This document shows, piece by piece, positions 9,621 to 51,006 of a DNA stretch of 64,000 nt. The position numbers and the translations under genes were made by a program. The notes below the pieces were generated by a model, which worked only from the letters and a program-made list of their open reading frames with translations, made no database searches and was not told where the DNA came from. Within the stretch, counting starts at the first letter, position 1, and each line of letters begins with the position of its first letter. The stretch lies in IMG/VR virus record IMGVR_UViG_3300010163_000024, positions 3 to 64,002 of that record, one strand, 5' to 3'. This DNA comes from a virus (taxonomy: Duplodnaviria > Caudoviricetes).

Positions 9621-9845
9621 CTATTTGGTGTTTTCTTCGGGGTACTCCAACTCAATAAGCATGTCTATGTAGTGTTTTATTTTCAGCAAGTCTTCCTTGC
9701 CGTTCTTATCCCTAAATCGAGTGATATACTTGACCACGCATCCCTGAATAAAGTCTAATCCGTTTGCGTGTATATACTCTATCGGCTGAATCTTTTGCTT
9801 GCGGTAGTGTTCTCCACCTACCTGTGTGTCTAATGCTTTTCCCAT
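9621..9845 (-). CDS. DUF3310 (SaV-like) protein
   Basis: QVGGEHY...IQPIEYI...GCVVKYITR...KNGKEDLLK. Confidence 0.8.
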   Translation of the reverse strand: MGKALDTQVGGEHYRKQKIQPIEYIHANGLDFIQGCVVKYITRFRDKNGKEDLLKIKHYIDMLIELEYPEENTK

Positions 9846-9971
9846 AGTGATTCACTCTTAAAAGGTGATTATCATACAAGTTTACACTTTTACATATTCG
9901 CGTTTCTTTGCCCCGACCACTGTCGGCGACTCCACGCGCCCTGCCCCGATCACCGCAGGTGGTATTCCTAT
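9845..9971 (-). ncRNA. TnpB omega-RNA (reRNA) 3' scaffold plus putative guide
   Basis: Overlaps the tnpB 3' end as omega-RNAs do; two hairpins plus GCGCGT/ACGCG pairing; near-identical copies elsewhere define the conserved core; scaffold/guide boundary uncertain. Confidence 0.7.
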
Positions 9972-11075
9972 AAGGTTCTGATGTTGCAAACCGAACCTCT
10001 TAATGTTTTGAGCAGCAAGCAAGTCACGGTCATGCGTCGTCCCACACTTCGGACAAGTCCACGACCTATCCGATAACGTCAGGGCGTCATTCTTGTAGCC
10101 GCAAGTACAAAGTTTGCTGCTCGGCTCGAATCTACCTATGCGGATAAGGTTCTTACCTTGCCACTCGCACTTGTACTCCAACTGACGAAAGAACTCCGAC
10201 CAACTCGCTGACGATATATGCTTTGCAAGGCAATGATTTTTCAGCATACCGTCTACATTCAAGTCCTCAATAATAATCGTTTGGTTCTCGCGAACTATCC
10301 TCGATGTTACTTGATGCAGAAAGTTGGTACGCTTGTTTCTCACTACCTCGTATTGCTTTGCTACTGCTCTACGTGCTCGCTCACGACGATTGCTGCCTTT
10401 TTGCTTCCTTGCAAACCTACGCTGCAATACAGCCAAACGTTTTTCCTCTTTCTCTAAATACTTCGGATTAGCGAAAGTCTGACCGTTTGACAGCACGGCA
10501 AAATCCTTAATTCCTACGTCTATGCCGACCGCCGTGTCCTCCGTGATAGGGGCTTTTGCAGGTAATTCCTTGCCGTCGTCTACCAGCACCGAAGCGTAAT
10601 ACTTTCCTGTCGCTGACTTGCTGATTGTTACCGTGCCTATCTTACCATCAAACGTCCGGTTCTTGTAGAACTTTACCTCTCCTATCTTTGGCAGTTTGAT
10701 TCGGTTTGTCTCAAAGTCAATACTTACCTTTTGCACAAACTGAAACGATGCACGTGAACGGTGCTTTGACTTGAACTTCGGGAAGCCTTTCTTTTCACGA
10801 AAGAAACGAACGAAGGCAGCCTCCATGTGCCGGATTGAACTCTGCAAAGACTGATTTGAAACCTCTTTTAGCCAAATCGTATCTTCCTGCTTTTTAAGCT
10901 CTGTAAGTTCCTTGCAGAGTTCTACCCAACTAATTCTTGTCTTATCTTTCTGATAGGCTTCGATGCGTCTATTCAACGCCCAGTTATAGACGAACCGTGC
11001 GCAACCAAAGGACTTCTCAAAGAACTCCGCCTGTGCCTTGTTAGGGTTCAATCTATATCTGTATGCCTTTATCAT
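9882..11075 (-). CDS. tnpB: RNA-guided endonuclease TnpB (IS200/IS605 family)
   Basis: N-terminal KAYRYRLNP HTH; RuvC-I VGIDVG, RuvC-II IIIEDL, zinc finger CTCG..CPKC, RuvC-III HDRDLLAAQNI; all three acidic residues intact; no tnpA nearby. Confidence 0.95.
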   Translation of the reverse strand: MIKAYRYRLNPNKAQAEFFEKSFGCARFVYNWALNRRIEAYQKDKTRISWVELCKELTELKKQEDTIWLKEVSNQSLQSSIRHMEAAFVRFFREKKGFPKFKSKHRSRASFQFVQKVSIDFETNRIKLPKIGEVKFYKNRTFDGKIGTVTISKSATGKYYASVLVDDGKELPAKAPITEDTAVGIDVGIKDFAVLSNGQTFANPKYLEKEEKRLAVLQRRFARKQKGSNRRERARRAVAKQYEVVRNKRTNFLHQVTSRIVRENQTIIIEDLNVDGMLKNHCLAKHISSASWSEFFRQLEYKCEWQGKNLIRIGRFEPSSKLCTCGYKNDALTLSDRSWTCPKCGTTHDRDLLAAQNIKRFGLQHQNLIGIPPAVIGAGRVESPTVVGAKKREYVKV

Positions 11076-11079
11076 ACTA

Positions 11080-11110
11080 CAAAGATAAGTAATAAAAACT
11101 AAATATGCAA
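11080..11110 (-). promoter_or_regulatory. Promoter of tnpB (probably leaderless mRNA)
   Basis: TTGC-N19-TATCTTTG ending 4 nt before the ATG. Confidence 0.65.
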
Positions 11111-11158
11111 GGATTTAGTTTGGTTCGGCGAACTTGTATATAATTACCATTGCCTTTT

Positions 11159-11470
11159 TTATTCTTCCTCCGATTTTATTTCCTCCAACTTCTTGCGGAA
11201 CTCGTCGAGCGACTTATCCAATTCTTTGAAAAACTCACCAAACGGCACATTCGGCAACTCTACATTCTCGCAAATAAAGTCAAAAATCTCCTTTGCCTTA
11301 TCCGTGTGTAGCACCTTGTTGCCATTCTCATACGTTGCGGTCGAATCCAACGCATACTGCATAGCGGTTGCCTTACTTTCGATAGGCTTACTGAATATCG
11401 ACGACATTAAATTCGGATCGATACCACGTTTCTGTAAAACTTCTTCTGTATGTTCCATTTTGTTTTCCAT
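11159..11470 (-). CDS. Hypothetical phage protein
   Basis: Packed ORF; resembles 62696-62989 in style (..AKEIFDFI...VELP). Confidence 0.55.
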   Translation of the reverse strand: MENKMEHTEEVLQKRGIDPNLMSSIFSKPIESKATAMQYALDSTATYENGNKVLHTDKAKEIFDFICENVELPNVPFGEFFKELDKSLDEFRKKLEEIKSEEE

Positions 11471-11477
11471 AACTTTG

Positions 11478-12406
11478 TTATTTTAGAATTTGTTTATACT
11501 TAATACACTTAAATCCTTTTCTCGGCACAAAGTCGTCAAAAAAGACGGACTTATATAGTTGCCGCTTATTAGCCCAATGCGCTACATCTTTTTGCCATTG
11601 TGGAATTATTTGGTGTTTATCGTCGAAGTTTCTATAAGGTTGGCAATGCGGTGTAATATCCTTTCGGCGTTCCCACATCCACTTAATCCTATTATAACTT
11701 TCGTCAAAATCGCGCAACAAGCAATAGCAAAACAACTCTTTCGTATATCCGTATTTTCTCAATAGTTGTAATGCGTGTTCCACATACTTAATCTGCGCAC
11801 TTTGGTCGCAAGCAACTCGAATATACTTTATCCACTTGCAAGACGCTAACAATTTCGCTACATCGTCAGTAATTAACCTTGCGTCCAAACCTTGATTAAA
11901 GTCTATTCGATAACCTCGTTTTGCCGCTATCTCTATTTGCTCAATTCCGTAGTCAGACGCGAGAATGTTATTATCCATAAGGATAAGGTTATTATTACCA
12001 TTTGCCACCTCGTCAATCGTCATATACGGCTTAACATTACCCTCTTTCTTTGGTACAATACACCACGCGCATTTGTTCGGACAACCCCGCGTCAAAAAGC
12101 CATACGAAATACCCTTGATACCATATAAAGAATAGTCGGGTTGCATACGGTCTATTTCGTCGGGTAGTTTGGTAGTATAGTCATATCCTGTACCACCTTT
12201 TATAACTTCGCAATTCCACACGTCGGTATTGTCGGGTGTAAAAGTAAATACCTTACTCATATACACTCGGTCATAGCGTCCGAAGAGAGGGTCTGCCCAC
12301 TCAACACTATCTACCCCCCCCTCGATTTATGCCACGCGGATAGTTTCATAAGTGCTAAATTCGGATAGCCGCTATGCCCGTCCACATCTACCAACCCGAT
12401 ACGCAT
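11478..12406 (-). pseudogene. Radical SAM protein, frameshifted in a G8 tract
   Basis: CPNKCAWC (CxxxCxxC); true N-terminus MRIGLVDVDGH..PNLALMKLSAWHK starts at 12406 and hits TAG right after G8 (12314-12321). Confidence 0.8.
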
Positions 12407-12409
12407 AGT

Positions 12410-13154
12410 TCAGTACACCTCCCTATTTACCTCCACCTCCAAACCTTTCTTGGCAATGTAAACCGGCTTCCCCGTTGCGCTCATAACGCGCCGACGAAAC
12501 TCAACTACATCCGAATTGTTGTCCGAGAGGTGGATTAAGATTATTTCGTTTACATTACTTAAATCATTCGCTTTAAGCATACCGATAGCGTTTTCCAAAC
12601 TCAAATGCGTCGTCATCAAACGGTCTTTCATTACGCTGCGAACCACACCGTTGTCGATATTACGCTCTACTATCTCATCAGAATAGTTCGCTTCAATCAT
12701 TATGTGGTTCAGACCGCTAAACTTGTATTCGAGCATCATCGTATCGGTAGCGAAAAGCAACTTCCCCATTTCTGGGTGTTCGATAACGAAACCAACGCAG
12801 GGTACATCGTGGTGTACATTAAAGGGTAGTATCTTAAAAGCACCAAGTTTGTACCCGTGCATTGGCTCGATAGGCTTGCAGTAGTTATTACAGTTGCATC
12901 CTGCGGATTCGAGCGTGTCAGCAAGAGCGAGAACTCTGCGACCTCGATTTGCATAGTGGTCTATGTACGCTGCGTGGTCGCTATCGGTGGGAGTGGCTTA
13001 CGCACACTCCCTGCAATCCCCCGATATTAAAGTTCATAGCCTTGTACACTTCGTCTGGGTTTACCCCTGCCTCCAACAAAAGACTACTTCCTTTGCTGTC
13101 GGTGAGTAAGTACGAATTACCCAAACTGCCGCTATCAACGACTATAAGTTTCAT
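12410..13154 (-). pseudogene. Metallo-beta-lactamase-fold nuclease/hydrolase, frameshifted in the HxHxDH motif
   Basis: 5' part MKLIVVDSGSLGNSY...SHSH; 3' part DH...HHDVPCVGF...ATDT...IEANYS...THLS...HLS; frames differ by +1. Confidence 0.8.
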
Positions 13155-13209
13155 AAAAAACCTCTAAATTTTATGCCCTACTGCAAGTGGTTTCGTGGCG
13201 CGCCATAAG

Positions 13210-14067
13210 CTAATACGGCTGCTCCTCCACTTCTTCATACTGAACTTCTTCCGTGTTTACGACGGTGGTGTTGGCTTCTTGTGCGACTACATAATCGCGT
13301 TCCTCCTCCGCTGTTTCAACGGTAGTGCCATTCGGCGTATTCGCATCTGCAAAACTATCCGACGAACTAATAATCGGAACAAGAGCAGAGTTTATGATTG
13401 TCTTGCAAATCATTTTGTAAGGAAAATCATTGTGCGTCTGCTTGGAATTACTCGACGACTTTTCCCACGCTTTCAAAACCATTTTCTTGGTCATAATGTA
13501 TAGGTCTTGCCCCCCGTCTCGGCAAGGAATATACAGATAAGCGCACACAAAGTCATTATCCATATTCTCAATCTTTGAAGTGTGCTTTACAAGACGCCTG
13601 CGTCCATTGGTAATGTCGGTGTCGAACTCGAACTCGTCGCCCTGATATACCACTCGCGGTACAGGTGTATAATCGGGGAATAAACGCTGTATCTGTGTCG
13701 TTGTCCCGTGATACTCCTTACCGAAAACAAGTCGGTTCCCACGAATAGAAAAATATCCTTGACCTTTCGATACGTCAAGCCCTTTTTGTGCCATATCGAC
13801 TAACGCCGTCTGAATTGACATTGGCGTACACGTTTCGAGCGGGGATTTTCCGTCTCGGTCTTTCATCTCGGCTATCGTCATCATTGACGACTTGATAGCA
13901 TTGATGTGGTTATACTTGCTCGGTAAAACAAGACCTCCCGCAATATACTTGTTAATAGTTGCGATTGCCTTGTCGGACGGCGTTTGCTGTGTGGCTACTG
14001 CCGTCGTACTTTGTACTGCCATCGTTGCTGCTTGCGGCTGTGCCGCGCTTTCGTTTGTTGTTGCCAT
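13210..14067 (-). CDS. recT: RecT-family single-strand annealing recombinase
   Basis: CTPMSIQTALVDMAQKGL, YFSIRG, YHG, VVYQGDEFEF, W..FPYKMICKTII. Confidence 0.8.
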   Translation of the reverse strand: MATTNESAAQPQAATMAVQSTTAVATQQTPSDKAIATINKYIAGGLVLPSKYNHINAIKSSMMTIAEMKDRDGKSPLETCTPMSIQTALVDMAQKGLDVSKGQGYFSIRGNRLVFGKEYHGTTTQIQRLFPDYTPVPRVVYQGDEFEFDTDITNGRRRLVKHTSKIENMDNDFVCAYLYIPCRDGGQDLYIMTKKMVLKAWEKSSSNSKQTHNDFPYKMICKTIINSALVPIISSSDSFADANTPNGTTVETAEEERDYVVAQEANTTVVNTEEVQYEEVEEQPY

Positions 14068-14093
14068 AGTGTTTATGTTTTACAATTATTCGT

Positions 14094-14330: not shown

Positions 14331-14922
14331 ATTTATATCTCCATATAAATGAATTTGTGTACTTGATACGTCCTCTTGCAACTTTTGATATAGACGATGG
14401 GTTGCTACTTGTCATTTCTGTTGCGATACTTATACTTTCATATTCACGAATGAATACTCCTGACAAATCAAATTGAAGTATAGCCCTTGAATTAGGATTA
14501 AGTGAGCCTTTTCTGCCATACATACCATTATTTTCCCCAGATTGGTCGCGATGAGCAACTCCTCTTTCTATTCGAGTTCCATAATTCCTATTTTCACGGA
14601 CAGACATCCATTCAAGATTTGATGCCCTATTATCGTTCTTATTTTCATTAATGTGATTTACCTCTGGTTTATTCTCGGGATTTGGAATAAATGATAAGGC
14701 AACCATACGATGAATAGAAAACCCTTTCGTATTTCCGTCTTTGCTTAAAGTAACGAACCTATATCCATTTTTATAATACTGTGGAGATAGAATAATTCCT
14801 TTTAGATTCTTTGATTTACCTGATTTTGTTCTTACAACCCTATCAATAGACCGTACTCTTCCCAGATTGCTTACTTGGTATAAGCCCTCATACTTGGGTA
14901 TATCTTTCCATTCTTCTTTCAT
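14323..14922 (-). CDS. NUMOD4/HNH homing endonuclease
   Basis: EEWKDIPKYEGLYQVSNLGRVRS, IHRMVALSF, VNHINENKNDNRASNLEW. Confidence 0.92.
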   Translation of the reverse strand: MKEEWKDIPKYEGLYQVSNLGRVRSIDRVVRTKSGKSKNLKGIILSPQYYKNGYRFVTLSKDGNTKGFSIHRMVALSFIPNPENKPEVNHINENKNDNRASNLEWMSVRENRNYGTRIERGVAHRDQSGENNGMYGRKGSLNPNSRAILQFDLSGVFIREYESISIATEMTSSNPSSISKVARGRIKYTNSFIWRYKYE

Positions 14923-16859
14923 TGTATAATAAGTTTATCGTCTTTTGATACTTTGAGTAATATCATCTGACTTTCAATCTCTGGAATGTCGTTAATTGAT
15001 TCTGCATTATCCAAGAAACACGGAGCGGTAATATGTGCGTATCGGCATATTGCGCTAATAATATCCAATCCTACAACAATTTTCTCGGCGTTGCTCAAAA
15101 CGCTATACGGTACCCCGTGCATCGTCGCTTCGCAAACCTCGACTTCCTCGCCGTTTACCTGCGTATCAAATAACTTGAAGCGTACAAACTTGAACAACCC
15201 ATTAACTCGGTCGCTGATAGCACGGCTTCGAGCCTTTGAAAACTCTTTAATAGCGTACAGCAAGCCTTTCAGATTTGCTTCTTTCTCTCCGAGATTCCGG
15301 TTCTGCTTCTCCAATTCGGCAATGCGCTCGGCGTTTTTGCGTATTTGGTCGCGTTTTGCAAGACGCGATTTCAGTCCATCCAACTCTGCCGTGAGTGTGC
15401 GCTTACGCTCTTGAAGTGCGGTGTCGGCGATTTCGGTAGGTGCTTCCGAGAGTTGATTTTTCAGTTCACCTATCTGTTTGGTGAGTTCGGCGTACTCGGC
15501 ATCGTCAATGATAAGTTCCTCATACGCAGGTTCAACGGGTCGCTCGCCTATAAGTTCTACCTTAACCTCCTCGATGCTTTTCTTATACCTTTCAATGTCG
15601 CGTTCCGCCCCCGCAATGATATTCTCCGCTAACGTCTTACGCTCTTTTACGGCTAATCCTTGCTTTTTGTTTATTCCCAGACGATTCGCCTTGTCTACGG
15701 TGAAACGTGCAATCATTTCGGATTGTTTTGCTTCAATATCGTCCGCCTCGTACTGCCGACCGCAAGTCGGGCATACGAACTGCGATTCGTCGAAAGTCAG
15801 AGTTTCGGCATTGATAGCGTGGTACTCGGCCAACAGTTGCTCTCGCTCTTTGTCGAGTTCTGCGATGTTATCCGTTTCGCGCTTAATCTTCGCCTCGCAG
15901 GTAGCAATGCCGTTTTCCCAATCCTTTACGTCGCGTTCGGCTTCTTCTATGATGTCAAGCCGCTGGTGGTACTCTTTATACGCCTTGTTCTTGATTTCTC
16001 TTTCCCGTTCCGTGCGCTTGCGGTTTACGGCGTCCAACTCCCTCGCAATAGTCGCCCTCGCTTCACTCGCCGCCGTTATCGCTTTTGCCTTGTCCGCAAT
16101 AGCACCCTCTACCTCTTGCAAATCTTTCGTGCGATCGAAAATCTGCACCTCTAATGCCGCCCAGTCCTCCGCCATAACCTCGTCGCGCTTACGCTCGTCA
16201 ATCCTTGCAGGTAGGTCGCTCAACTCCTTGCGTACTCGCGCAAGTGAAGCCTTTGTTTCGTCCTCGAACTGTGTAAGTGTCTTGTTGCCTACCTTATCGA
16301 ACAACTTTCGGAACTCGCCGTTGCTTTCGATAATCTCTGCGTCGGTAACTCCGCCCGCCATTTTGAAAAGCAACTGACGCTGTACATCGGGTTTCTGCGA
16401 AGAAAAGTAGTGAGGGTTGGTAGTGTACTTAAAAATCTCCTCTTTGACAATAGCGTCGATTTTCTCCTGCCACTCCTTGACGCTACAAGGTACGCCGTTG
16501 TACAGCCTTTCGGTTTCGTGTCCTTTGAAAACTTCTTCACCGTTGCTGTCTTTGTCCCTACGCCATACCTCATTGTATCGTCGCGTAAGCGTAATTTCTT
16601 CGCCGTTCACGTCCAGCACCGCCGTAACTTCATGCGGCACTCGCGGAATGACTACGCCGTCATCATTTGTTTTCACATCGAACTCGGCGCGATTTTGGCT
16701 GTCCTTACCGAACAACACCCAAGTGAAGCCGTCGAAAATCGTTGTTTTTCCTTGACCGTTTGAACCCGAAATAGTTGTGCGGTCGGAAAAGTCTATTGTA
16801 TAGTCCTTGAAGCCTTTGAAATAGACAAAGGACATTCGTTTTAGGGTAACTGTTTTCAT
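14919..16859 (-). CDS. SMC/Rad50-like AAA ATPase with coiled coil
   Basis: GSNGQGKTT, zinc hook CPTCG, signature LSNAE, Walker B FLDNAES. Confidence 0.88.
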   Translation of the reverse strand: MKTVTLKRMSFVYFKGFKDYTIDFSDRTTISGSNGQGKTTIFDGFTWVLFGKDSQNRAEFDVKTNDDGVVIPRVPHEVTAVLDVNGEEITLTRRYNEVWRRDKDSNGEEVFKGHETERLYNGVPCSVKEWQEKIDAIVKEEIFKYTTNPHYFSSQKPDVQRQLLFKMAGGVTDAEIIESNGEFRKLFDKVGNKTLTQFEDETKASLARVRKELSDLPARIDERKRDEVMAEDWAALEVQIFDRTKDLQEVEGAIADKAKAITAASEARATIARELDAVNRKRTEREREIKNKAYKEYHQRLDIIEEAERDVKDWENGIATCEAKIKRETDNIAELDKEREQLLAEYHAINAETLTFDESQFVCPTCGRQYEADDIEAKQSEMIARFTVDKANRLGINKKQGLAVKERKTLAENIIAGAERDIERYKKSIEEVKVELIGERPVEPAYEELIIDDAEYAELTKQIGELKNQLSEAPTEIADTALQERKRTLTAELDGLKSRLAKRDQIRKNAERIAELEKQNRNLGEKEANLKGLLYAIKEFSKARSRAISDRVNGLFKFVRFKLFDTQVNGEEVEVCEATMHGVPYSVLSNAEKIVVGLDIISAICRYAHITAPCFLDNAESINDIPEIESQMILLKVSKDDKLIIQ

Positions 16860-16877
16860 ATCTTTCTTTTTTTAACG

Positions 16878-17249: not shown

Positions 17250-17274
17250 ATTGTTATATCGTTTAATTAAAGTT

Positions 17275-17750: not shown

Positions 17751-17751
17751 A

Positions 17752-18401: not shown

Positions 18402-18467
18402 AGTTCTTATTGTTTTGATACGCAAACTTACCAATTATTTTTCAATCTACAAAATTATTTTGATGTT

Positions 18468-28989: not shown

Positions 28990-29346
28990 CTATCTAATCG
29001 GCGCGAATTGCAAGCGTTTGTAAAAATCATTCCAATCAATCGCCCACACCGTCAGCACGTCCGCGCCCGGCGCGTTCACATCGTAGTGCGACAGTGTGCC
29101 GTATCGCTCGTGCAAGTCCTTGACCGTCGCGATTATGTAACCGCGCCCCGCCATCCATTCGCGCGCGATTTCGCGCATTTGACGATTGTGTTTGTTTGTT
29201 ATGCAATAATCCTTTAATGCCGCGGCGCGTGCCGTCATTCGCTTTGCGACGTTAATCCAATTCGTTAAAGTTAGATTGTCTACTCGTTTGCTTTTCATCT
29301 TTTCAGTTGTTTTTTTTATTTGACACCGGGCGGCATTGCCGCCCAC
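28990..29346 (-). CDS. Hypothetical phage protein
   Basis: Early-region ORF; the real start is probably internal (MKSKRV). Confidence 0.5.
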   Translation of the reverse strand: MGGNAARCQIKKTTEKMKSKRVDNLTLTNWINVAKRMTARAAALKDYCITNKHNRQMREIAREWMAGRGYIIATVKDLHERYGTLSHYDVNAPGADVLTVWAIDWNDFYKRLQFAPIR

Positions 29347-29387
29347 GCGCTCGGCCTAAGTCCTATTTTAAGCCGCCAAGCCGGCTA

Positions 29388-42470: not shown

Positions 42471-42486
42471 CTTGATACGACAAAGT

Positions 42487-45231
42487 ATGTTACGACTGAA
42501 AGATACAAGTATAAGTAAGCCGGTACCCTATCCGAGGGTGGAGAGAAAAGACCCTACCGTCATCGACAAAGGTTGGGATAGGGTCGGAGGATTTACGCTT
42601 CGGGATAAGGTGGACTTTATGCCGCAGAAAGGATTGCAGGAAAGATTGTGCGCGTGTGATAGTAACCTCGTGTTCCTTTGTGGAGCGGCTACAATGGGTA
42701 AGGCGCAGCCATACGACACAAAGGTTCTTACACCTAACGGATTTGTAGATATGGGGTCGCTACAAGTCGGCGACACTATATCGGGATCAGACGGAGGTAG
42801 GCAGACCGTATTAGGTATTTTCGAGCAAGGAGAAAAGGACGTTTACGGAATTAATTTCGAGGATGGAAGTTATACAGAGTGTTGCAAAGAACATCTTTGG
42901 AAAATATCTTCGAGAACATTAAGTTGTCATCAAACTTATGGCGATTACCACATCGAAAAGTTTGAGGATATTATGCGGCTTCTCGACACGAATTACGCTG
43001 TATGTATTCCTTATTGTGGAAAAATACAGTTCAAGGAACAAGAACTTCCTGTAAAGCCATATACGCTCGGAGTTATATTAGGTGATGGTCATTTCCCAAA
43101 ACGAGGTAATCCGCAAATTTCTTGTATTGATACTGAAATTATTGATAGAATAAAGAAAGATGGGTATTCCGTAAGTAAGATACCAAGCCACACTATAGAC
43201 TATATTATATCGGGTCATAACATAAATCAAAAAATCAAAGAACTCGGATTGTGGGATAAACGCTCTTGGAGTAAGTTTATTCCCAACATATATAAAATGT
43301 CAAGTGTGGATGACAGAATGGAGTTGATACGAGGTCTTATGGACACCGATGGTTGTATAGATACGAATAGCAGATTGTATTATGCAACAGCAAGCAAACA
43401 ACTTGCAAAAGATTTTCAATGGATTGTACGCTCTTTGGGTGGTAGGTGTTCTATAACGGAAGCACATCCAAAATATAAATGGAAAGGAGAAGTTAGGCAA
43501 GGGCGAACATCATACTGCTTATGGCCGTCTTTCAAGGATGATAATAATGCAGTAACAATTACAAGAAAGAAAGAACGAACAAGGGAACATACATATAGTC
43601 GTCGTAAGTCCATCGTATCTTATAAGTATGTAGGCAAAAAGCAATGCCGATGCATTCTTGTATCGAATCCCGACCACTTGTATATTACTGACGACTTCAT
43701 CGTTACTCATAACACCTACGGAATGTTCTTAAAGTCGTTAGAGGGCATAGATAAGCAAGGCTATACGGCTCGTATGATTTCCGTCCGCTTACAGGATAGC
43801 AAGAAAGGTTCATCTATATTCCGTGATGCGGTCGAGGTTTGTGGTAATTTTGCAGGGTGTGAGTACAATTCATCGGACTACCCTACATTCTCGTGGAAAA
43901 AGTGGAATAGCAACTTGCAGTTGATTCACTTAAACTTTAATGTAAATAATCAGCAAGAATGGGAGGATTTTCAAGAGTATTGTAAAAAGCAGCAAAGTTC
44001 AAAAATACTCGTGGATGAGGCTACGGATGCAGAGGAAAAGGCTTTGATGTATCTTTTTTCTCGTAACCGCGATAGTTCGGGTATGACACCACAATCTATA
44101 TGGTCATTCAACCCAAAACACGAACATTTCACTACCCGCGTTCTAAAAGATGCTGGATATTTGGGCGAAGATTGGTTTTTCAAACCTGAAATGAATGGTG
44201 CTACACGGTATTTCTATATGTTAGGAGATACTTTTGCAGATGCTATTTGGGGGGACACGCCCGAAGAAGTGGCAGAGAGAGCGAATATCCAAATTAGTGA
44301 TGGTGATAAGGCGGCAGGCGTAACGTTCTACCATATTGTAAAATCATTCACGGCTTTCACAGGAGAAGCATCAGATAACCGTAAACTTATTGCCGCGACG
44401 AAAGGTCAAGTTATCGGAAACCTGCACGCCGTAGGTAAAACCCAGCGAAGTGTTCTTAAAGGTGCTTATTTCGGTCCTATTGACAACGAGGAACTGACCG
44501 TATCGCGGCAGATGATACACGCCTTATGGGAGAACCCTATCAATGGCGATGAGAATATGTACGCCACTATGGACGTGTCGGGAGGTGGCGAGGAGAGCGA
44601 CAACTGTCCTATGGTTATATGGAAAGGGTTGCAGATTATCGCTATAAAGATGTTCAGCGGAGACCCTAAACAGTTGGTCGATTGGATTGACACTACCTTA
44701 CGAGAGTATGGTGTCCCGACAGAACACTTTGCATTTGACGCAACCGGCATTGGCTACTATCTCCGGAGTTATTCGTCCGGTGTTCCTATTACGGCAAATA
44801 AGAGAGTTTTGCAGGAATACGACGAGTACGGGAACCCAGTAACACTTACTGATTACTACAACCTGCGTTCGCAGTTGCTCGGCAAGACGAAAGTATTGTT
44901 GGAGAAAGGTGAGATTTCGTGCGCGGTGGATAAGGATATTGTGTTACCATACGGTAAGAAAGGCAAGACACGGCGGTTGATAGACATTCTGTTCGACGAG
45001 ATGAATGTGTTTATTACGACTACAAGGAACAGAAAGGTTTACTACCGACACAAGGATGAATATAGAAGCAAATTTAAGGCTTCGCCTGACCTTATGGACG
45101 CCATATCGTATAGGGCTATTTTCGAGCTAGATGCGCGAGAAAAGAAAGCGCCGCCTAAGGAGATATCCGATGATGCTTACGACGGCTTGTATCAGCACTA
45201 CGGCAGAGGACAGAGTGTTGTTTGGGTGTAG
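42487..45231 (+). CDS. terL: Terminase large subunit, intein-containing
   Basis: After intein removal Walker A reads GAATMGKT; Walker B ILVDEATD; nuclease MDVSGGG...FAFDATGIG...PDLMDAI. Confidence 0.9.
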   Translation: MLRLKDTSISKPVPYPRVERKDPTVIDKGWDRVGGFTLRDKVDFMPQKGLQERLCACDSNLVFLCGAATMGKAQPYDTKVLTPNGFVDMGSLQVGDTISGSDGGRQTVLGIFEQGEKDVYGINFEDGSYTECCKEHLWKISSRTLSCHQTYGDYHIEKFEDIMRLLDTNYAVCIPYCGKIQFKEQELPVKPYTLGVILGDGHFPKRGNPQISCIDTEIIDRIKKDGYSVSKIPSHTIDYIISGHNINQKIKELGLWDKRSWSKFIPNIYKMSSVDDRMELIRGLMDTDGCIDTNSRLYYATASKQLAKDFQWIVRSLGGRCSITEAHPKYKWKGEVRQGRTSYCLWPSFKDDNNAVTITRKKERTREHTYSRRKSIVSYKYVGKKQCRCILVSNPDHLYITDDFIVTHNTYGMFLKSLEGIDKQGYTARMISVRLQDSKKGSSIFRDAVEVCGNFAGCEYNSSDYPTFSWKKWNSNLQLIHLNFNVNNQQEWEDFQEYCKKQQSSKILVDEATDAEEKALMYLFSRNRDSSGMTPQSIWSFNPKHEHFTTRVLKDAGYLGEDWFFKPEMNGATRYFYMLGDTFADAIWGDTPEEVAERANIQISDGDKAAGVTFYHIVKSFTAFTGEASDNRKLIAATKGQVIGNLHAVGKTQRSVLKGAYFGPIDNEELTVSRQMIHALWENPINGDENMYATMDVSGGGEESDNCPMVIWKGLQIIAIKMFSGDPKQLVDWIDTTLREYGVPTEHFAFDATGIGYYLRSYSSGVPITANKRVLQEYDEYGNPVTLTDYYNLRSQLLGKTKVLLEKGEISCAVDKDIVLPYGKKGKTRRLIDILFDEMNVFITTTRNRKVYYRHKDEYRSKFKASPDLMDAISYRAIFELDAREKKAPPKEISDDAYDGLYQHYGRGQSVVWV
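42703..43713 (+). mobile_element. Intein (337 aa, class 3 signature) with LAGLIDADG homing endonuclease
   Basis: Starts AQPYDTKVLTPNG, ends IVTHN followed by Thr; block B EHLW, block F CRCILV, LGVILGDG and IRGLMDTDG motifs. Confidence 0.92.
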
Positions 45232-45502
45232 ACTACTACAAAGGTATAGGCTTCGGGTTCGATGAGAAGTGCTTGGGTGATTATGTCCCCCTTGTTTATT
45301 ATATAGGTGATTATGTACTAACTTCCATAGCAAAATTTAGCGAGATAACAAAATGTTTCAAAGAACACTTCTCTTATTTTCACGATCTTTGCAAAGGGTT
45401 ACTTCATATATAAATGCCTTTTTAAATGGGGGGGAACTTGTATGATTTGTATATTATATTTTTTTTCTTATATTTGCGCAGGTTAGAGTGTTAAATTCGG
45501 TC

Positions 45503-45685
45503 ATGGATAGGACTATTTATTGTTCAGAGTGTTCAAAGCGCGGACTACCGCCTAAAAAGTTGGGTGTAGTCGAGGATGTAGAGCGAGCCGGAGGCAAATT
45601 GCGCCTTTGGTGTAAACAATGCAAAAAAGAGATTCGCGTAGTAATTCAAGACGGTAAGATAGTAACGACAGACGCTAATAGATAG
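45503..45685 (+). CDS. Small zinc-binding protein
   Basis: CSEC...LWCKQCK; upstream TATATTTG promoter. Confidence 0.55.
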   Translation: MDRTIYCSECSKRGLPPKKLGVVEDVERAGGKLRLWCKQCKKEIRVVIQDGKIVTTDANR

Positions 45686-45797
45686 AAAACTTTTTCGTAA
45701 CATACCTTTTTTTGAGTTTTTGAGCCAACGGTATTTCTGCCGTTGGCTCTTTTGCTTTTTTGGGGTGTGGGACGGATAAAAATATAAATATGACAAT

Positions 45798-45890
45798 CAC
45801 CTGCGGTGAGCGGGGCAGAGCGCGCGGAGTTGCCGACAGTAGTTGGGGCTAAGAAACGCGAATATGTGTAACTTATTAAATCATAATCAC
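45798..45890 (+). ncRNA. Orphan copy of TnpB omega-RNA scaffold (copy A)
   Basis: CACCTGCGGTGAGCGGGGCAGAGCGCGCGGAGTTGCCGACAGTAGTTGGGGCTAAGAAACGCGAATATG aligns with the reverse complement of 9.89-9.96 kb. Confidence 0.8.
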
Positions 45891-46574
45891 ATGAAAAACA
45901 AAATTAAGGCGGCATTGCAACAGAAGTATCCGCAACTGGGGCTTGCTGATGAAGTTTTTGAGGGGGTCGCTTCCGCCGTTGAAACCCTTATCCCGGATGA
46001 GGCAGCCATTCCCGCTTTCGTAGAGGGCGCGGAGGGTATGCTGAAACGGTATCAGAGTATCGCTGACAAGACGCGTGGAGAGTTAGCAGAGGCGAAGCGG
46101 GAGTTGGAAGCGTTGAAAGCAAAGCAAGTTGAAAAGCCTGCCGAGCCAAAAGATGCACCAAAATCCCAAGAAGAACCGAAGCCTGCGGAAACGTCCGACC
46201 TTTCCAAACTAATCAGTGAGGCCGTAAGTGCAGCGGTGAAGCCCTTGCAAGACGAACTTGCGTCTTTCAAAGGAGAGCAGGCACAAAAGGCCGCCGTGAA
46301 AACGGCAAAGGAAAAGTTCTTCGCAAACGACTACGCAAAGAAGTACGAAACCGAGCGCGACGATGCGTGGGAACGTGCTATCGAGAAGTTCGAGGACACG
46401 GGCAGTAAAATGAACGTAGACGAACTTCACAACACGGCTATGGGATACTTTAATAAGTATGTTTCTCGAAAGGGCGTAGACACCAAAGTACCGTTCAAGA
46501 GCGAGGGGAACAGCGATACTGAAAACTTTTCCGCATTCGACAGAGTGGTGGCAAAGGAGAACGAAAAAAAGTAG
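45891..46574 (+). CDS. Capsid scaffolding protein
   Basis: Charged coiled-coil protein just upstream of the head genes; probable start 45891. Confidence 0.7.
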   Translation: MKNKIKAALQQKYPQLGLADEVFEGVASAVETLIPDEAAIPAFVEGAEGMLKRYQSIADKTRGELAEAKRELEALKAKQVEKPAEPKDAPKSQEEPKPAETSDLSKLISEAVSAAVKPLQDELASFKGEQAQKAAVKTAKEKFFANDYAKKYETERDDAWERAIEKFEDTGSKMNVDELHNTAMGYFNKYVSRKGVDTKVPFKSEGNSDTENFSAFDRVVAKENEKK

Positions 46575-46593
46575 AATATAAAAACAAAAAAAG

Positions 46594-46995
46594 ATGAAAC
46601 ATTACGGAAACACATTCAATGCCGAGAAAGTCGATTCGGTAGATGTTGAGCGCATTTCGTTGTGGAAGTCCGTGCGAGAGTTTTTCCCGAGCGGTGCCGT
46701 GCTTTCGTCGGAGGACGTTGCTGATACGACAGACCTTGCAACCGGTAAGGTTAAGGTCGGCGACATTATCCCCGCAGGTACGCCTATTTTCGTTACGAAG
46801 CCCGGCGGTAAACCGACTTTCAACGGTGCAACTCCTCTTGGTCTGACCTATGAGGATGTAGAGATGGGTAACGAGGGTTGCACGTTCACTATCGTAACGA
46901 TGGGCGAGTTCCTCGAATCGCGCACAAAAGCAACAATTACAGACGCACAAAAATCGCATCTGTTTGGTCGTATTTCATTCATTAAGGAGGTATAA
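46594..46995 (+). CDS. Head decoration protein
   Basis: 133-aa beta-rich ORF between scaffold and capsid (IPAGTPI...PLGLTYED). Confidence 0.65.
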   Translation: MKHYGNTFNAEKVDSVDVERISLWKSVREFFPSGAVLSSEDVADTTDLATGKVKVGDIIPAGTPIFVTKPGGKPTFNGATPLGLTYEDVEMGNEGCTFTIVTMGEFLESRTKATITDAQKSHLFGRISFIKEV

Positions 46996-46998
46996 GCT

Positions 46999-48312
46999 AT
47001 GGATGCAAGATTTAATGGATTTGGAAACATTATGCAGGCTCTCGGACTTGGTTCGTCCAAGTCGTTAGAGGTTTGGTACAATAAATACCTGCAAGGAAAG
47101 GAGACGACCAACTTTAATATAGACGGTTTCTCGTGGGACGAACAGCAAATCGACTTCTCGTATGAACTGGGTGAAGTAGACGAGAACATCACGGCAATGG
47201 CTACCTATGTGGACGTGAACTCCGAGCCGCTGCCTCGTGGTCGTCAAATCTCTATGCGTAAGTTCGGCGGTTATATCCCGCGTCAGAGGCGACTGGAGGT
47301 TATGGGTGAGAATGATTACCGCCGTTGGCTTATTGCTGCACAGGATCTGGAGAGTGCCGCCGTTCTTCGTGGCGATTCTCCCTACACCTCACTGCTTGAC
47401 TACTTTGCCAAGAACATTCTGAACACTGTTTCGGAGTTCCCGTCGGCACACGCGCAGTCGATTACCTATCAAGTGGGTCAGATGAAGTCGAACCCCGATG
47501 GTTTGGTACTCACTGACACGAACAACCAAGGCGGTATTGTAAACGTATCGTTTAAGTCGAATATCCCGGCGGAGAACGTAACCACTTCTGCTTACTGGAC
47601 GGAGGACGCAAATGGTAACGTAGCTTCCTACGACGAGACGAAGAATCCTGTTATGGATTCGCAGAAGTTCGTTAAGGATTTGAAGTATAGCGGCACTTAC
47701 GGTGCAGTTACGCTGGAACTTGACGAGGAGGATACGATGTACAAGCTGGTTCGTCACCCTGCATTCAAAAAGGCGATCGGTTACATGACTATTGGGGGTC
47801 TGTACACCGCAGGTAAGTCAAATGATGATTCGGATATTCGTGCTGCCGAAGCTGGTAGTTGGGCACTAATGACGGCGGACGACGCACAGATTAAGACGTG
47901 GTTCAAGCGCCTTATGGGCGTCGATGAGGTTGTTTACCACAATAATGTGGTATTCGCGCCGAAGTTCAACGCGGAGACTAAGCAATTCGACTACCCGATG
48001 CTCAAAGCGTTCAACACCGGCGTCCTGCTGTATCGTCCGAGCGGCAATATGGGTACGATTAAGAACGTCGTTCCTGTGCGTCCCGACGGTAGTGCAATCT
48101 CGGCGAATATCTTTGGCGGTCGCGGTATTATCGAGTACCGGTACAACCCCGAGACTCGTACCCAGACTTGGGTTTCCGAGCTGACCGCACTGGCAGTTCC
48201 GAGCCGTCCGACGAAGATGTACATCAAGAAGATTAGCAACGATTCGGCGGTTCTGTCTCGTTTGGTAGATACCGAGCCGAAAGTGTTGTCTACCAAAACT
48301 TCGAGCAAGTAG
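46999..48312 (+). CDS. Major capsid protein
   Basis: 437 aa, position in the head cluster, lambda gpE-like organisation. Confidence 0.75.
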   Translation: MDARFNGFGNIMQALGLGSSKSLEVWYNKYLQGKETTNFNIDGFSWDEQQIDFSYELGEVDENITAMATYVDVNSEPLPRGRQISMRKFGGYIPRQRRLEVMGENDYRRWLIAAQDLESAAVLRGDSPYTSLLDYFAKNILNTVSEFPSAHAQSITYQVGQMKSNPDGLVLTDTNNQGGIVNVSFKSNIPAENVTTSAYWTEDANGNVASYDETKNPVMDSQKFVKDLKYSGTYGAVTLELDEEDTMYKLVRHPAFKKAIGYMTIGGLYTAGKSNDDSDIRAAEAGSWALMTADDAQIKTWFKRLMGVDEVVYHNNVVFAPKFNAETKQFDYPMLKAFNTGVLLYRPSGNMGTIKNVVPVRPDGSAISANIFGGRGIIEYRYNPETRTQTWVSELTALAVPSRPTKMYIKKISNDSAVLSRLVDTEPKVLSTKTSSK

Positions 48313-48336
48313 GGAAACAAATGAACATTGAGTAGT

Positions 48337-48879
48337 ATGACCGTAGAAGCGTATTTGAAAAGTTTAGTCCCGGGCCTTGATTTGCCGAAAGAGGTATATC
48401 AGAGGGCAGCGCGTAGTCCGAAGGAAGTAGGGCTTGACGCTGTTAAGTTGGATGATGATATTGACGCTTTCGATGCTATCGAGGACAAGGACGAGAGAAA
48501 TAAGGCGGAGGCCGAGTTTCAAGTTCGACTTGATTATGCGTCTTCTACGGTCTATTACGCTGTTTTGGGTGTGTTCGCTGGAGGCGGGTTCACGGAACAG
48601 TACGGAGACACGCAGATGCGCAAAGGTGGTTACACTATCACTATGGCAGATAGGGAGCGTTTTAAGATGCTCGCTGACGCCTTGCGTAAAAAGCATGGAT
48701 TCGATACGGAGGACGAGGACTTGGAATCCGGCGGTATGTTCGACGGTGGGTATTTGCGTTCATTAAATAGGAATACCACCTGCGGTGAGCGGGGTAGGGC
48801 GCGTGGAGTTGCCGACAGTGGTCGGGACAAAGAAACGCGAATATATGAAAGTGTAAACTTGTATGATAATCACCTTTAG
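48337..48879 (+). CDS. Head-tail connector/adaptor; last ~37 codons encoded by an omega-RNA copy
   Basis: MTVEAYL..., GG.TEQ.GD....KGG motif; position after the capsid gene. Confidence 0.65.
   Translation: MTVEAYLKSLVPGLDLPKEVYQRAARSPKEVGLDAVKLDDDIDAFDAIEDKDERNKAEAEFQVRLDYASSTVYYAVLGVFAGGGFTEQYGDTQMRKGGYTITMADRERFKMLADALRKKHGFDTEDEDLESGGMFDGGYLRSLNRNTTCGERGRARGVADSGRDKETRIYESVNLYDNHL
48767..48877 (+). ncRNA. Orphan copy of TnpB omega-RNA scaffold (copy B)
   Basis: 105/111 nt identical by manual alignment to the reverse complement of 9861-9971. Confidence 0.9.
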
Positions 48880-49192
48880 GGATAAATGCGTAATTGAGCG
48901 TCCGACGGATAGGTACGACGAATGGGATAACCAAATCGTCGAAACTATCTACGAGGGTGAGTGCCACTACGAGGAGGGCGGACAAAGCAACGTGAATCGT
49001 ATGGTAATACGCAATCCCCTATTGTTCCTGCCGAGCAACAAGGTACTTGTAAATATCAACGATTCTGTAAGTATAGAGACGCTTGCAGGTCGCAAGATTA
49101 CGAGTGTCGTAGAGGCGGTTCGGGACATCCGCTTTATCTTCATTGAACGCGAGACTACCCGCATAGAGTTGAAGCAGGCGAGTGAAAAGTAA
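48863..49192 (+). CDS. Head-closure protein
   Basis: Position and pattern (DEWDN...IYEGECHY...GRKITSVV). Confidence 0.6.
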   Translation: MIITFRDKCVIERPTDRYDEWDNQIVETIYEGECHYEEGGQSNVNRMVIRNPLLFLPSNKVLVNINDSVSIETLAGRKITSVVEAVRDIRFIFIERETTRIELKQASEK

Positions 49193-49256
49193 AAGACAGC
49201 GTGTTCGCTTGCGGATAGCGAAATACGTAGTCGGTTATTAACACAACGATTGTATT

Positions 49257-49700
49257 ATGAGTAGTATTGCTGACATACAACCTGACGCGGAGTTAAAGCA
49301 GTTGTTGGAGGGTAAGATTACAATCCAAACATCTGCGACGGATACAACTACGCTTCCTGTATATCGGCAAGGAGAGCGACCCAATACGGGGTTAGCGAAC
49401 GAGTTTATAGACATAAACATTAACGGAGTTATCCGTGCAATGGTACATCCGTTAGGTTTGTTTCGCGGCAATTTAGCCGTTAGTGTCTATTGCAAGACGC
49501 AGAACAACGGAGTGGTAAAGCAAAATCGAGTTAATGCAATCGTAAGTCAGTTGGAAGAGTATTTGAAGTATCGAAAGAACGGAAAGTATTTTTTTGAACT
49601 GAATCCGCAGAATATCATTACACCCACGACAATCAATGTAACGGCAGGCTATTCCGTAACGGTTTTGAACGTGGAATGGCAAATGTCGGAAAAGGAGTAA
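49257..49700 (+). CDS. Tail terminator-like protein
   Basis: Position and size. Confidence 0.55.
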   Translation: MSSIADIQPDAELKQLLEGKITIQTSATDTTTLPVYRQGERPNTGLANEFIDININGVIRAMVHPLGLFRGNLAVSVYCKTQNNGVVKQNRVNAIVSQLEEYLKYRKNGKYFFELNPQNIITPTTINVTAGYSVTVLNVEWQMSEKE

Positions 49701-49703
49701 CTA

Positions 49704-50228
49704 ATGGCAAATACGGCGGAAAATAAGCGTGTATTCTCGAAGTTGCTAAAACTTCATGTAGAGAATATGGTGAAACCAAAGATTGTAAGTATACTCAACA
49801 ATATAGCTGCGTGGTTGGTTGGTGTTATAGACGGAGATTTTGCACCACACGAAAAAGGAGGAGGCACAGATGTATTTCCGTTCTGGTTCGGACATCTACA
49901 CGACGCTACGGGAGTTGGGGTTTATGTGGACGGTGTCCTAATGTCGTATAAACCGACAAATAGAGGAAAAGGTTCACAGAACGACAACGAGACTCAAACA
50001 CACAATATCATTGGTACGGAATATCTCGAAAACGCATTACAAGAAGCATCGGGAGAGTTCGCAAATGGAATATGGATAGTGTTGTTTTCTGCTGTTCCTT
50101 ATGCTTATAAAGTAAATACCAAGGGTTCACCATGGCATAGAGGTATAGGGTTTTTTGATACCCTTGAAGATACTCTCAAACGCGAGGTTTTTGCTAATTT
50201 ACAGCCGTTAGGCACTCAAACAATGTAA
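49704..50228 (+). CDS. Neck/tail-completion protein
   Basis: GHLHDATGVGVY, AVPYAYKVN motifs; position. Confidence 0.55.
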   Translation: MANTAENKRVFSKLLKLHVENMVKPKIVSILNNIAAWLVGVIDGDFAPHEKGGGTDVFPFWFGHLHDATGVGVYVDGVLMSYKPTNRGKGSQNDNETQTHNIIGTEYLENALQEASGEFANGIWIVLFSAVPYAYKVNTKGSPWHRGIGFFDTLEDTLKREVFANLQPLGTQTM

Positions 50229-50259
50229 TTTAACGTAAAACAATTTAATACTTACAACT

Positions 50260-50859
50260 ATGGCAGGAATTAAGAGAGCGGGAGTTACCGATATTTTCAA
50301 CGGTCAGTCCGACATTGTACTTTTCGATACCGTTACAGATTATGACGCCCTGACACTTGCCACTCTTGCTGGGGCAAAGTCACTCGGCCAGATTGTGCAG
50401 GATTCGACGGAATGGAATGGCGACGAACCCGAAGTGAACAACATTCTCGACGAGCAGGGCGACGTTATCACGGCTTCGGTTACGGCTGGAACGTTGGGCT
50501 TTACTTTTGAAATGGCCGACACCTCGAAAGAAAATTTCAAAGAGTTCTTAAAAGGTATGGACGTTAAAAAATCTACTACCGAAAACACTTGGACGAGCGA
50601 TGTTTGGGATGGCGAGGTTACGGCAATAGGTTTTGGTACTCAACTTCCAACAATGACGCGACCGATTATGGTTGTGAACGACGAGGCAAACAAGTCGATT
50701 CTGCTTCCGAAAGCAAAGATTACGTCAAACCTGACTATTTCTGATGGTCTTTGGCGTATTGCAGTTACGGTAGTTGCCGAGAACGTAGATACGCCTACGA
50801 TGAAAACCGGTATGCTGATTGTCGGCAAGACGAAGTACGACGAGGAAGTATCGGCTTAA
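50260..50859 (+). CDS. Major tail tube protein
   Basis: 199-aa acidic beta-rich ORF upstream of the chaperone and tape measure genes. Confidence 0.7.
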   Translation: MAGIKRAGVTDIFNGQSDIVLFDTVTDYDALTLATLAGAKSLGQIVQDSTEWNGDEPEVNNILDEQGDVITASVTAGTLGFTFEMADTSKENFKEFLKGMDVKKSTTENTWTSDVWDGEVTAIGFGTQLPTMTRPIMVVNDEANKSILLPKAKITSNLTISDGLWRIAVTVVAENVDTPTMKTGMLIVGKTKYDEEVSA

Positions 50860-50901
50860 CAGTCGACAAAGGAGAACGAATGGGCGAGAGTCGTAGGTTG
50901 C

Positions 50902-50938
50902 ATAGGCGATAGCCGTCGGCTTGCGGCTCTCTTTTAAT
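50902..50938 (+). terminator. Terminator-like stem after the tail tube gene (stem spans about 50886-50932)
   Basis: GAGAGTCGTAG ... TTGCGGCTCTC followed by TTTT. Confidence 0.45.
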
Positions 50939-50942
50939 TATC

Positions 50943-51006
50943 ATCCGCAGTTGGCGGGGCAGAGCGCGTGGAGGGGAGAGGTTACGAACCCGATGAAGCG
51001 CGAATA
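50943..51006 (+). ncRNA. Diverged orphan omega-RNA-like copy (copy C)
   Basis: TCCGCAGTTGGCGGGGCAGAGCGCGTGGAG...GATGAAGCGCGAATA keeps both hairpins and the CGCG pairing. Confidence 0.6.

Follow-up and report, generated by a model that had tools for sequence, protein, structure and literature searches.

A gut phage (Bacteroidales-type) provides a real and clear case of the stand-alone omega-RNA arrangement that has already been described in other systems. Within the 64,000-nucleotide stretch of DNA that was analyzed (the window), one tnpB gene is accompanied by three modules, denoted here as copies A, B, and C. These are predicted to be stand-alone omega-RNAs, with a scaffold homologous to that of the co-resident effector and no adjacent effector or transposase gene. 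We consider it probable, but well short of certain, that the three copies are non-autonomous omega-RNA/right-end modules of a tnpB element family circulating in gut Bacteroidales-type phages. They are most likely remnants of a selfish mobile element, possibly still capable of homing, and we read the arrangement as selfishness at the level of the element rather than as a dedicated phage weapon.

The tnpB gene and its element are composed of the following features.
9882..11075, minus strand: tnpB open reading frame of 397 amino acids, an ISDra2-like RNA-guided nuclease with intact RuvC D/E/D and zinc-finger motifs (Pfam, PDB alignment).
9864..9975, minus strand: tnpB-linked omega-RNA core and right end, ending in ...ATAATCACC (91.7 bits with covariance model R1).
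9973..9998, minus strand: extra 5' hairpin of the tnpB-embedded RNA, AGGTTC...GAACCT (alignment folding).
9844..9863, minus strand: putative guide flank of the tnpB-linked RNA, which runs into the start of a DUF3310 gene (ATG 9845; sequence and DUF3310 match).
11076..11148, minus strand: left end of the tnpB element (sequence, motif search, and a matching layout in relatives).

The protein matches the Pfam families OrfB_IS605, Cas12f1-like_TNB, and HTH_OrfB_IS605. Its alignment with the ISDra2 TnpB structures (8bf8/8exa/8h1j) has an E-value of 4e-83, with the catalytic motifs GIDVG, IEDLN, and HDRD aligned. By fold, domains, RuvC D-E-D triad, and zinc finger, the gene is predicted to encode an OMEGA TnpB effector. 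The preliminary description of this DNA had reported an intact tnpB at this position with its own promoter, and both statements hold; a Bacteroidota-type promoter box, TATCTTTG, is located directly ahead of the ATG. The predicted omega-RNA is structured, overlaps the 3' end of the gene, and stops at the right end of the element. According to the pair counts, one stem-1 pair is mismatched, at bases that double as coding sequence. The 5' hairpin covaries in relatives (one pair is AU 7, GC 5, and GU 2 times, and another is UA 10 and CG 4 times), and it was not found by alignment folding in copies A, B, or C.

The ends of the element in the window are inverted repeats (GGTAAYTATATAC / GTATATAATYACC), and the terminal inverted repeat GGTAATTATATAC at 11136–11148 mirrors the right end. 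Although the inverted repeat is present, no target duplication was found around this copy. In related phages, perfect 8-bp target duplications surround full elements at at least six independent sites, and an empty allele has a single copy of the duplicated sequence. The absence of tnpA from the window, noted earlier, was confirmed by a PF01797 search of the 64-kb record (89% complete; a host copy is possible), which gave no match to a Y1 transposase. The IS1595-type DDE transposase (PF12762) was not matched in this phage or in four relatives. Inverted-repeat ends and 8-bp duplications indicate that the carrier is not a classical IS200/IS605 element. With symmetrical ends, duplications in relatives, and no Y1 HUH match, it would fall outside the IS200/IS605 group, including the IS1341-type. 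The end sequence and the 8-bp duplication may point to the IS1595 family (ISNwi1-like), which has ends of ggnnatTAT and an 8-bp duplication.

The three modules and the sequences associated with them are as follows.
45276..45318, plus strand: two left-end-like inverted-repeat motifs, GGTGATTATGTCC at 45276 and GGTGATTATGTAC at 45306 (motif search, alignment).
45435..45446, plus strand: additional right-end fragment, the exact 12-mer AACTTGTATGAT, inside the site-A mosaic (three exact matches versus 0.01 expected).
45784..45891, plus strand: copy A, omega-RNA core and right end, the last base being the A of the ATG at 45891 (R1, 77.9 bits).
48763..48874, plus strand: copy B, complete omega-RNA core and right end, the top-scoring copy (R1, 93.9 bits, E-value 2e-21; protein alignments).
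48875..48894, plus strand: putative guide flank of copy B, codons F-R-D-K-C-V-I of the head-closure-like gene, conserved in relatives.
50928..51040, plus strand: copy C, diverged omega-RNA core and right end, ending in ...AACAACG, 1 nt before the GTG at 51042 (R1, 44.0 bits, E-value 9e-9).

Model R1 was trained solely on the tnpB 3' ends of 20 relatives, and the copies in the window were excluded from the training. With the filters off, the four matches in the window were the tnpB-linked RNA and copies A–C, and the fifth-best match scored only 18 bits. By BLAST, copies B and A are 95% and 85% identical to the tnpB end, respectively. The proposal that the tnpB 3' end recurs without its open reading frame at three sites is thus upheld by an independent model that recovers exactly four copies. 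Compensatory changes were found in 12 of the 24 R1 model pairs across relatives, and standard pairs occupy 90% of the pair cells in the four window copies versus 33–49% with the partners slid, so that the stems described as common to all four copies are borne out. Single-sequence folding z-scores (−0.1 to −1.1) were not significant, and the case for an omega-RNA structure is therefore made by covariation and not by folding energy. These comparisons show that copies A–C are homologues of the final ~110 nt, at the 3' side, of the TnpB guide-RNA scaffold, with a predicted fold that matches it.

All three copies are on the plus strand, and their ends overlap a gene start or lie 0–2 nt ahead of one. 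The locations given previously are correct in this respect, but the end of copy C had been placed too short, since the module reaches 51040. Among the gene labels used earlier, scaffold corresponds to a weak PHROG match and head-closure and tail-chaperone to no PHROG match; the names are merely positional. No tnpB-like open reading frame was found adjoining copies A, B, or C, and no second near-match to any of the four putative guides was found within the window. Copies A and B begin at the same scaffold position as the solo modules of relatives.

Copy B is the sole member of the three whose predicted structure is intact, with every helix preserved and an R1 score above that of the tnpB-linked copy. 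It encodes the last ~37 codons and the stop codon of the open reading frame at 48328–48879, and it supplies the ATG (48863) of the open reading frame at 48863–49192. The adaptor homologues of the nearest relatives are 81–91% identical and 135–148 amino acids in length, without the 37-residue tail. The head-closure homologues, up to 98% identical, begin with MEFRDK where this phage has MIITFRDK. Read at the protein level, these comparisons indicate that copy B is a recent insertion that is absent from the nearest relatives. The naive B allele deduced from them has no clean junction of left flank and guide; ~6–12 nt of native sequence appear to be missing, and the bases before the guide match would therefore be ATGGAR, which is at most a candidate TAM.

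Copies A and C are probably older or crippled. Copy A retains helices 1–3 with one broken pair (pair counts), and its guide-proximal helix 4 is broken (three pairs and a 3-nt deletion). The left-end motif has three matches in the window versus 0.48 expected; one is the tnpB left end, and the other two are co-oriented with copy A at 470–600 bp upstream, with an open reading frame in between. The 12-mer AACTTGTATGAT is common to the site-A fragment, the tnpB end, and copy B. A 60-amino acid open reading frame at site A was considered as a TnpB remnant and ruled out. Copy C keeps helices 1 and 2, and its inner and 3' hairpins are replaced by other pairing sequences. It is ~62–65% identical to every subfamily compared, and it matched none of those sampled as its own. 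The intergenic space at copy C is ~113 nt longer than in relatives. The comparisons for copies A and C are with distant relatives. The capsid searches of viral, metagenome, and genome collections yielded only relatives of ≤52% identity; the module was not found at 23 morphogenesis loci of capsid relatives.

The same family was found in nine related gut-phage contigs, each with one or two tnpB copies and two to four solo hits. Sequence comparison shows that it occurs in related phages as full elements, as two-ended mini-elements, and as solos with no left end. The mini-elements (~230 bp) contain only the omega-RNA between both ends and are flanked by 8-bp duplications (TAACCAAA, TAAGTTTA). One left-end-less solo, bordered by a 9-nt duplication, is filled in two phages and empty in five that are near-identical. 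Near relatives lack copy B, as judged from their proteins, and solos of relatives are polymorphic at the DNA level; the omega-RNA modules are thus evidently mobilized. Co-oriented placement at gene starts is found for 14 of 18 solos in relatives and also for full tnpB elements. It is thus general to the element family and does not indicate that virion genes are targeted in particular. In relatives, the conservation of solos at orthologous sites is 94–96% versus 94–100% for their flanks, and purifying selection is therefore not evident. Flanks of insertions with duplications were read for a TAM. The closer subfamily gave TGATA, TGATA, GTATA, ATGGA, and AGAGA, and the 65% subfamily gave NNAAA; these are too few and too mixed for a common TAM to be derived.

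Under the preferred interpretation, copies A–C would be co-transcribed with the late operon, and the resident TnpB could bind the RNA from copy B in trans. This complex would cut alleles without the insertion, and repair from the carrying genome would copy the module in. The module would thereby home selfishly, and marker exclusion would be a side effect. The missing 5' hairpin of the solos, the broken helix 4 of copy A, and the divergence of copy C count against this interpretation, as do the lack of a target duplication around the tnpB element of the window, the ~6–12 nt apparently lost from the naive B allele, and the conservation of solos in relatives, which does not exceed that of their flanks.

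A possible, although less favored, alternative is that copies A–C are inert relics, that is, full tnpB insertions that have lost the left end and open reading frame, with intactness reflecting age alone. The decay mosaic at site A (left-end-like motifs, right-end fragment, and an unrelated small open reading frame), the defects of copies A and C, and the missing nucleotides at the copy B junction all agree with this explanation. The left junctions of solos show microhomology to the target, as deletion or repair would leave, and the solos of relatives are no more conserved than their flanks. However, copy B outscores the tnpB-linked copy with every helix intact, and copies A, B, and the solos of relatives share one scaffold start. 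The two-ended mini-elements with target duplications show that small units are mobilized as such, and a left-end-less solo with a 9-nt duplication is polymorphic among near-identical phages. The relic explanation offered in the preliminary description is thus correct only in part, because omega-RNA-only units are mobile or polymorphic in relatives.

The use of stand-alone omega-RNAs in trans by one effector is plausible here by analogy and is not new. We regard as unlikely the stronger proposal that a single TnpB, trans-loaded by dispersed left-end-less scaffolds, would attack co-infecting relatives by cutting their adaptor/closure, scaffold, and tail-chaperone junctions where these are uninterrupted. 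In that array-less multi-guide system, the solos would as a result spread by homing without a transposase, and the phage would gain localized marker exclusion. More doubtful still is a selected, phage-beneficial system in which one TnpB and four RNAs destroy or convert the essential morphogenesis loci of co-infecting relatives. In its favor are the intact TnpB and its promoter, the shared orientation of the three solos, the conserved gene starts that flank them, and the recurrence of this arrangement among several lineages of phages. Even where capsid relatives have ~50% protein identity, no more than 2–3 of the 18 nt in the guide A region differ, and trans use is proven in principle (PMC10691335). 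Nevertheless, the gene-start location is the general insertion habit of the family, two of the three solo scaffolds are impaired or divergent, and the solos show no excess conservation. A fit of the TAM-position bases of the naive alleles is not evident, and selfish spread without benefit to the phage explains the same data. The anatomy put forward originally stands: a single intact tnpB that has no transposase, and three modules that encode no protein and are each flanked by a "guide" of their own. The further claim of a programmable system for multi-site homing or phage competition found no support in the tests made here, and several results speak against it: among the three modules only copy B is intact, copy A has lost its guide-proximal hairpin and copy C has diverged, the 5' hairpin is missing in copies A–C, the naive B allele has no clean junction, and the gene-start habit is general. 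It is very improbable that the modules are domesticated cis elements serving gene expression without TnpB (as start codon, 5' UTR structure, or RNA processing site): copy B does provide a downstream start codon and an upstream stop and copies A and C abut start codons, but near relatives express these genes without the module, which is thus not needed, and the simplest view of the coding use is that it resulted from the insertion and was tolerated.

Stand-alone omega-RNAs that are mobilized and function in trans with a compatible effector are attributed to Altae-Tran et al. 2021 in PMC10691335. The copies in the window resemble these OMEGA (TnpB/IscB) RNAs in having a scaffold that matches a co-resident effector, no adjacent effector or transposase, their own flanking guide, and apparent mobilization. 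They differ in being wedged at virion-module gene junctions of a phage genome, without the element left end and the covarying 5' hairpin, and their trans function is putative. The PATEs of Geobacillus stearothermophilus encode omega-RNAs that are served in trans (Meers et al. 2023, PMC10055086). PATEs are also protein-less tnpB derivatives that would need TnpB from another copy, but they retain both IS200/IS605 ends and depend on Y1 TnpA. No left-end motif adjoins copy B or C, which would set both apart from PATE/MITE-like mini-elements. The carrier family here has inverted-repeat ends and 8-bp duplications, with two-ended mini-elements in relatives and not in the window. ISDra2 TnpB with its reRNA/omega-RNA is a close homologue and shares the catalytic triad, the zinc finger, and the layout, with the RNA overlapping the gene 3' end and the guide being the flank past the right end. 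ISDra2, however, belongs to IS200/IS605, has a Y1 TnpA, and lacks both inverted repeats and a target duplication. PMC10691335 describes DDE-transposase-associated TnpB branches with inverted terminal repeats, in which solo tnpB is presumably mobilized in trans. The tnpB gene here likewise lies between symmetrical inverted-repeat ends but, unlike in those branches, the IS1595-type DDE transposase (the only DDE family searched) was not found in this phage or the four relatives. Free-standing phage homing endonucleases such as T4 SegF (reviewed in PMC13565253) are similar in the proposed outcome, namely cutting of the element-less allele of a co-infecting relative, co-conversion, and marker exclusion. 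Here RNA would encode the specificity, and the system would be divided into a single protein gene and RNA genes dispersed over the genome.

Trans use of the solos would mean that RNA-guided elements in gut phages can spread without a transposase, by homing via one shared nuclease, and co-infections would allow the effect on virion-gene inheritance to be measured. Were the copies nothing more than selfish debris, the family would still provide a useful natural series from full element to two-ended omega-RNA-only mini-element to left-end-less solo. This series can help in the study of how guide genes of TnpB become detached from the gene for the nuclease, a step thought to precede CRISPR-like arrays. 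The family also provides an ISDra2-like TnpB carried on an element type that has inverted-repeat ends and makes 8-bp duplications.

A blastn search of 44800–52000 against an isolate-phage collection and a scan of IMG/VR with a long exact pattern of the core gave no match, and a close TnpB was not found in five Bacteroidales MAGs that hold capsid relatives. A shorter core pattern identified seven loci in IMG/VR, of which L094 proved to be the tnpB end of a relative (L010). The other six were not matched by R1 and are apparently chance hits.

To avoid circularity, a covariance model of the omega-RNA core and right end (R1) was trained solely on tnpB 3' ends from 20 phages other than this one, and the window was scanned with filters off. 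Four matches were found, and the next match reached only 18 bits. The four are as follows:

48763-48874, plus strand, copy B, a stand-alone omega-RNA/right-end module (solo) without its own tnpB, 93.9 bits
9864-9975, minus strand, tnpB-linked copy, overlapping the tnpB 3' end, 91.7 bits
45784-45891, plus strand, copy A, solo, 77.9 bits
50928-51040, plus strand, copy C, solo, 44.0 bits (E 9e-9)

The preliminary description had proposed that the structured 3' end of tnpB recurs three times without the ORF, and the independently built model returned exactly these three copies together with the tnpB-linked one. The existence of copy C was upheld, but the module is longer than had been described. 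The omega-RNA structure contains four helices with compensatory changes among relatives at 12 of the 24 pairs, and standard pairs account for 90% of the pair cells in the four window copies versus 33-49% in slid controls. The folding energies of single sequences were not significant.

Every helix is intact in copy B, the best of the four. The tnpB-linked copy has a single mismatched pair in stem 1, at a sequence that also codes. Copy A retains helices 1-3 with one pair broken; three pairs and 3 nt are missing from its guide-proximal helix 4, and it has a right end of ...CACA rather than ...CACC. Copy C retains helices 1 and 2, other pairing sequences substitute for the inner and 3' hairpins, and its identity to each subfamily compared is only 62-65%. 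Copies A and C are probably impaired. All three solos lack the 5' hairpin found at 9973-9998 in the tnpB copy, a hairpin that covaries in relatives.

The ORF at 9882-11075 (minus strand) encodes a complete TnpB with OrfB_IS605, TNB, and HTH domains. Residues 3-364 align to ISDra2-type TnpB structures (E 4e-83) with the GIDVG, IEDLN, and HDRD motifs all in place, in agreement with the earlier reading of tnpB as intact with its catalytic residues. The reported absence of tnpA from the window was borne out, as no match to the Y1 transposase family was found anywhere in the 64,002-bp record.

The ends of the tnpB element are inverted repeats of ~13 bp: GGTAAYTATATAC marks the left end, and at the right the complementary sequence lies immediately interior to ...ATAATCACC. 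Relatives that combine these repeats with 8-bp duplications fall among stretches L010-L089 (e.g., L011, L029, L014, L054, L076, and L084), and independent insertions are flanked by the perfect duplications TAACTTAA, CCATGTTT, TTTGTAAC, CTTGTATA, TTCTTATA, and TTAGACTA. An empty allele with the duplicated octamer in single copy was also recovered (empty alleles: L178/L180/L181). The inverted-repeat ends, the 8-bp duplications, and the single-octamer empty allele contradict a classical IS200/IS605 carrier; this family with an ISDra2-like TnpB is DDE-like and fits a DDE-type element mobilized in trans. Branches of TnpB associated with DDE transposases and inverted repeats have already been described (PMC10691335), and the carrier shares the inverted repeats with them. 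No IS1595-type DDE gene was found in this phage or in four relatives. In the window, the tnpB element shows the inverted repeat and no duplication, and many element copies are without duplications. One left flank, CTGATATTCTTATA, is paired with differing right flanks across phages (L053, L062, L077, L087, and others), which suggests rearrangement by recombination between element copies.

Copy B lies at the junction of an adaptor-like ORF and a head-closure-like ORF. In distant relatives this site encodes a protein of 142-145 aa, and the next gene (110-116 aa) overlaps it. Among database homologues of the upstream protein, the closest (81-91% identity, 135-148 aa) have ends such as LRSLKG or LRGQRE, and the 37-residue tail encoded by copy B is absent from all of them. 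For the downstream protein, the nearest homologues (up to 98% identity) begin with MEFRDK; the window protein begins with MIITFRDK, and its MIIT is read from the element right end, ATGATAATCACC. By these protein comparisons, copy B is an insertion relative to the nearest relatives. Since neither the native last codons with their stop nor the native ATG-GAR is present on either side, about 6-12 nt of native sequence appears to have been lost or replaced, so that this is not a clean junction of left flank and guide (the flank beyond the right end). At copy C, the ~113 nt of extra intergenic space relative to distant relatives is explained by copy C itself.

Site A, which precedes the scaffold-like gene, is a mosaic. 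Two left-end-like motifs (45276 and 45306) are followed by an exact right-end 12-mer (45435), a 60-aa ORF, a terminator hairpin, and copy A. Taken together without the intervening DNA, the flanks ...TTATATA (left) and TGAAAAAC... (right) look like the uninterrupted starts of scaffold genes in distant relatives. The ORF (45503-45685, plus strand) is zinc-ribbon-like and has a TAnnTTTG-type box of its own as well as a strong terminator; it showed no kinship to TnpB and received no family assignment.

At least 198 IMG/VR stretches, most of them supplied by one large collection, contain TnpB relatives with 62-76% identity. Over 50 whole records, R1 detected a tnpB-linked RNA in 45, many with additional matches, and nine of the ten records in which tnpB was located combine two to four solo modules with one or two copies of tnpB. 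R1 modules were absent from this phage's five capsid relatives and from 18 further morphogenesis loci. The modules in relatives fall into three grades, namely full elements, mini-elements, and left-end-less solos. In the mini-elements (~230 bp), a short unrelated hairpin stands between the left end and the omega-RNA core, the right end follows the core, and 8-bp duplications (TAACCAAA and TAAGTTTA) flank the whole. The left-end-less solos begin at a scaffold position identical to that of copies A and B. One of these is filled in two phages and empty in five whose flanks are nearly the same. A 9-nt repeat, CTTTAAATA, borders this solo and is also microhomologous to the interior of the mini-element. 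The small units are thus mobile in relatives. At orthologous sites, conservation of the solos is no higher than that of their flanks. In L185 versus L187/L189 (records G032 versus G035/G030), two different insertions, one a left-end-less solo and the other a mini-element with both ends, occur within ~10 bp of each other before the same gene of related phages, which makes this site a hotspot for insertion.

In 14 of 18 cases in relatives (about 8 of 10 distinct sites), the solo is followed within 9-43 nt by a start codon on the same strand, and full tnpB elements likewise sit co-oriented before gene starts. Co-oriented placement at gene starts is therefore a general habit of the element family: the position at gene starts that had been pointed out recurs, but it is not special to virion genes. 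Some relatives contain a loose array-like cluster in which two further omega-RNA mini-elements on the same strand, each before a gene and spaced ~860-960 nt apart, come after the tnpB-linked omega-RNA:

G036:C1, 8052-10011, array-like cluster
G030, 14636-15735, array-like cluster
G034, 52093-53192, array-like cluster

The core of the earlier proposal, that one TnpB could load several omega-RNAs in trans, is known biology: trans function with a compatible effector is published for stand-alone omega-RNAs (PMC10691335), and PATEs encode omega-RNAs that need TnpB in trans (PMC10055086). The solos are probably selfish, non-autonomous products of the tnpB-carrying element family. Copy B, which is young and intact and located in the late operon, would be the most likely source, among the solos, of an RNA that the resident TnpB could bind. 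If this RNA were transcribed, processed, loaded in trans, and matched to a compatible TAM, its binding by TnpB could lead to cutting and conversion of the uninterrupted junction of relatives, and hence to homing of the solo. A role in phage competition may be hypothesized. Transposon "non-restorative homing" into co-infecting phages has been discussed as a theoretical case (PMC13565253).

The source record is a 64,002-bp IMG/VR viral contig with an estimated completeness of 89%, nearly all of which is covered by the window. Bacteroidales MAGs hold capsid relatives, one of them in an Alistipes MAG, and the tnpB left end contains a TAnnTTTG-type box, the promoter consensus of Bacteroidota; the host is therefore probably a member of the Bacteroidales. 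The sole Rfam family match within the window is a Pistol ribozyme at 29321-29386 (minus strand; 57.3 bits versus a gathering score of 34.5). In the terminase-like ORF at 42472-45231 (plus strand, 919 aa), the PHROG terminase matches are divided by a middle segment.
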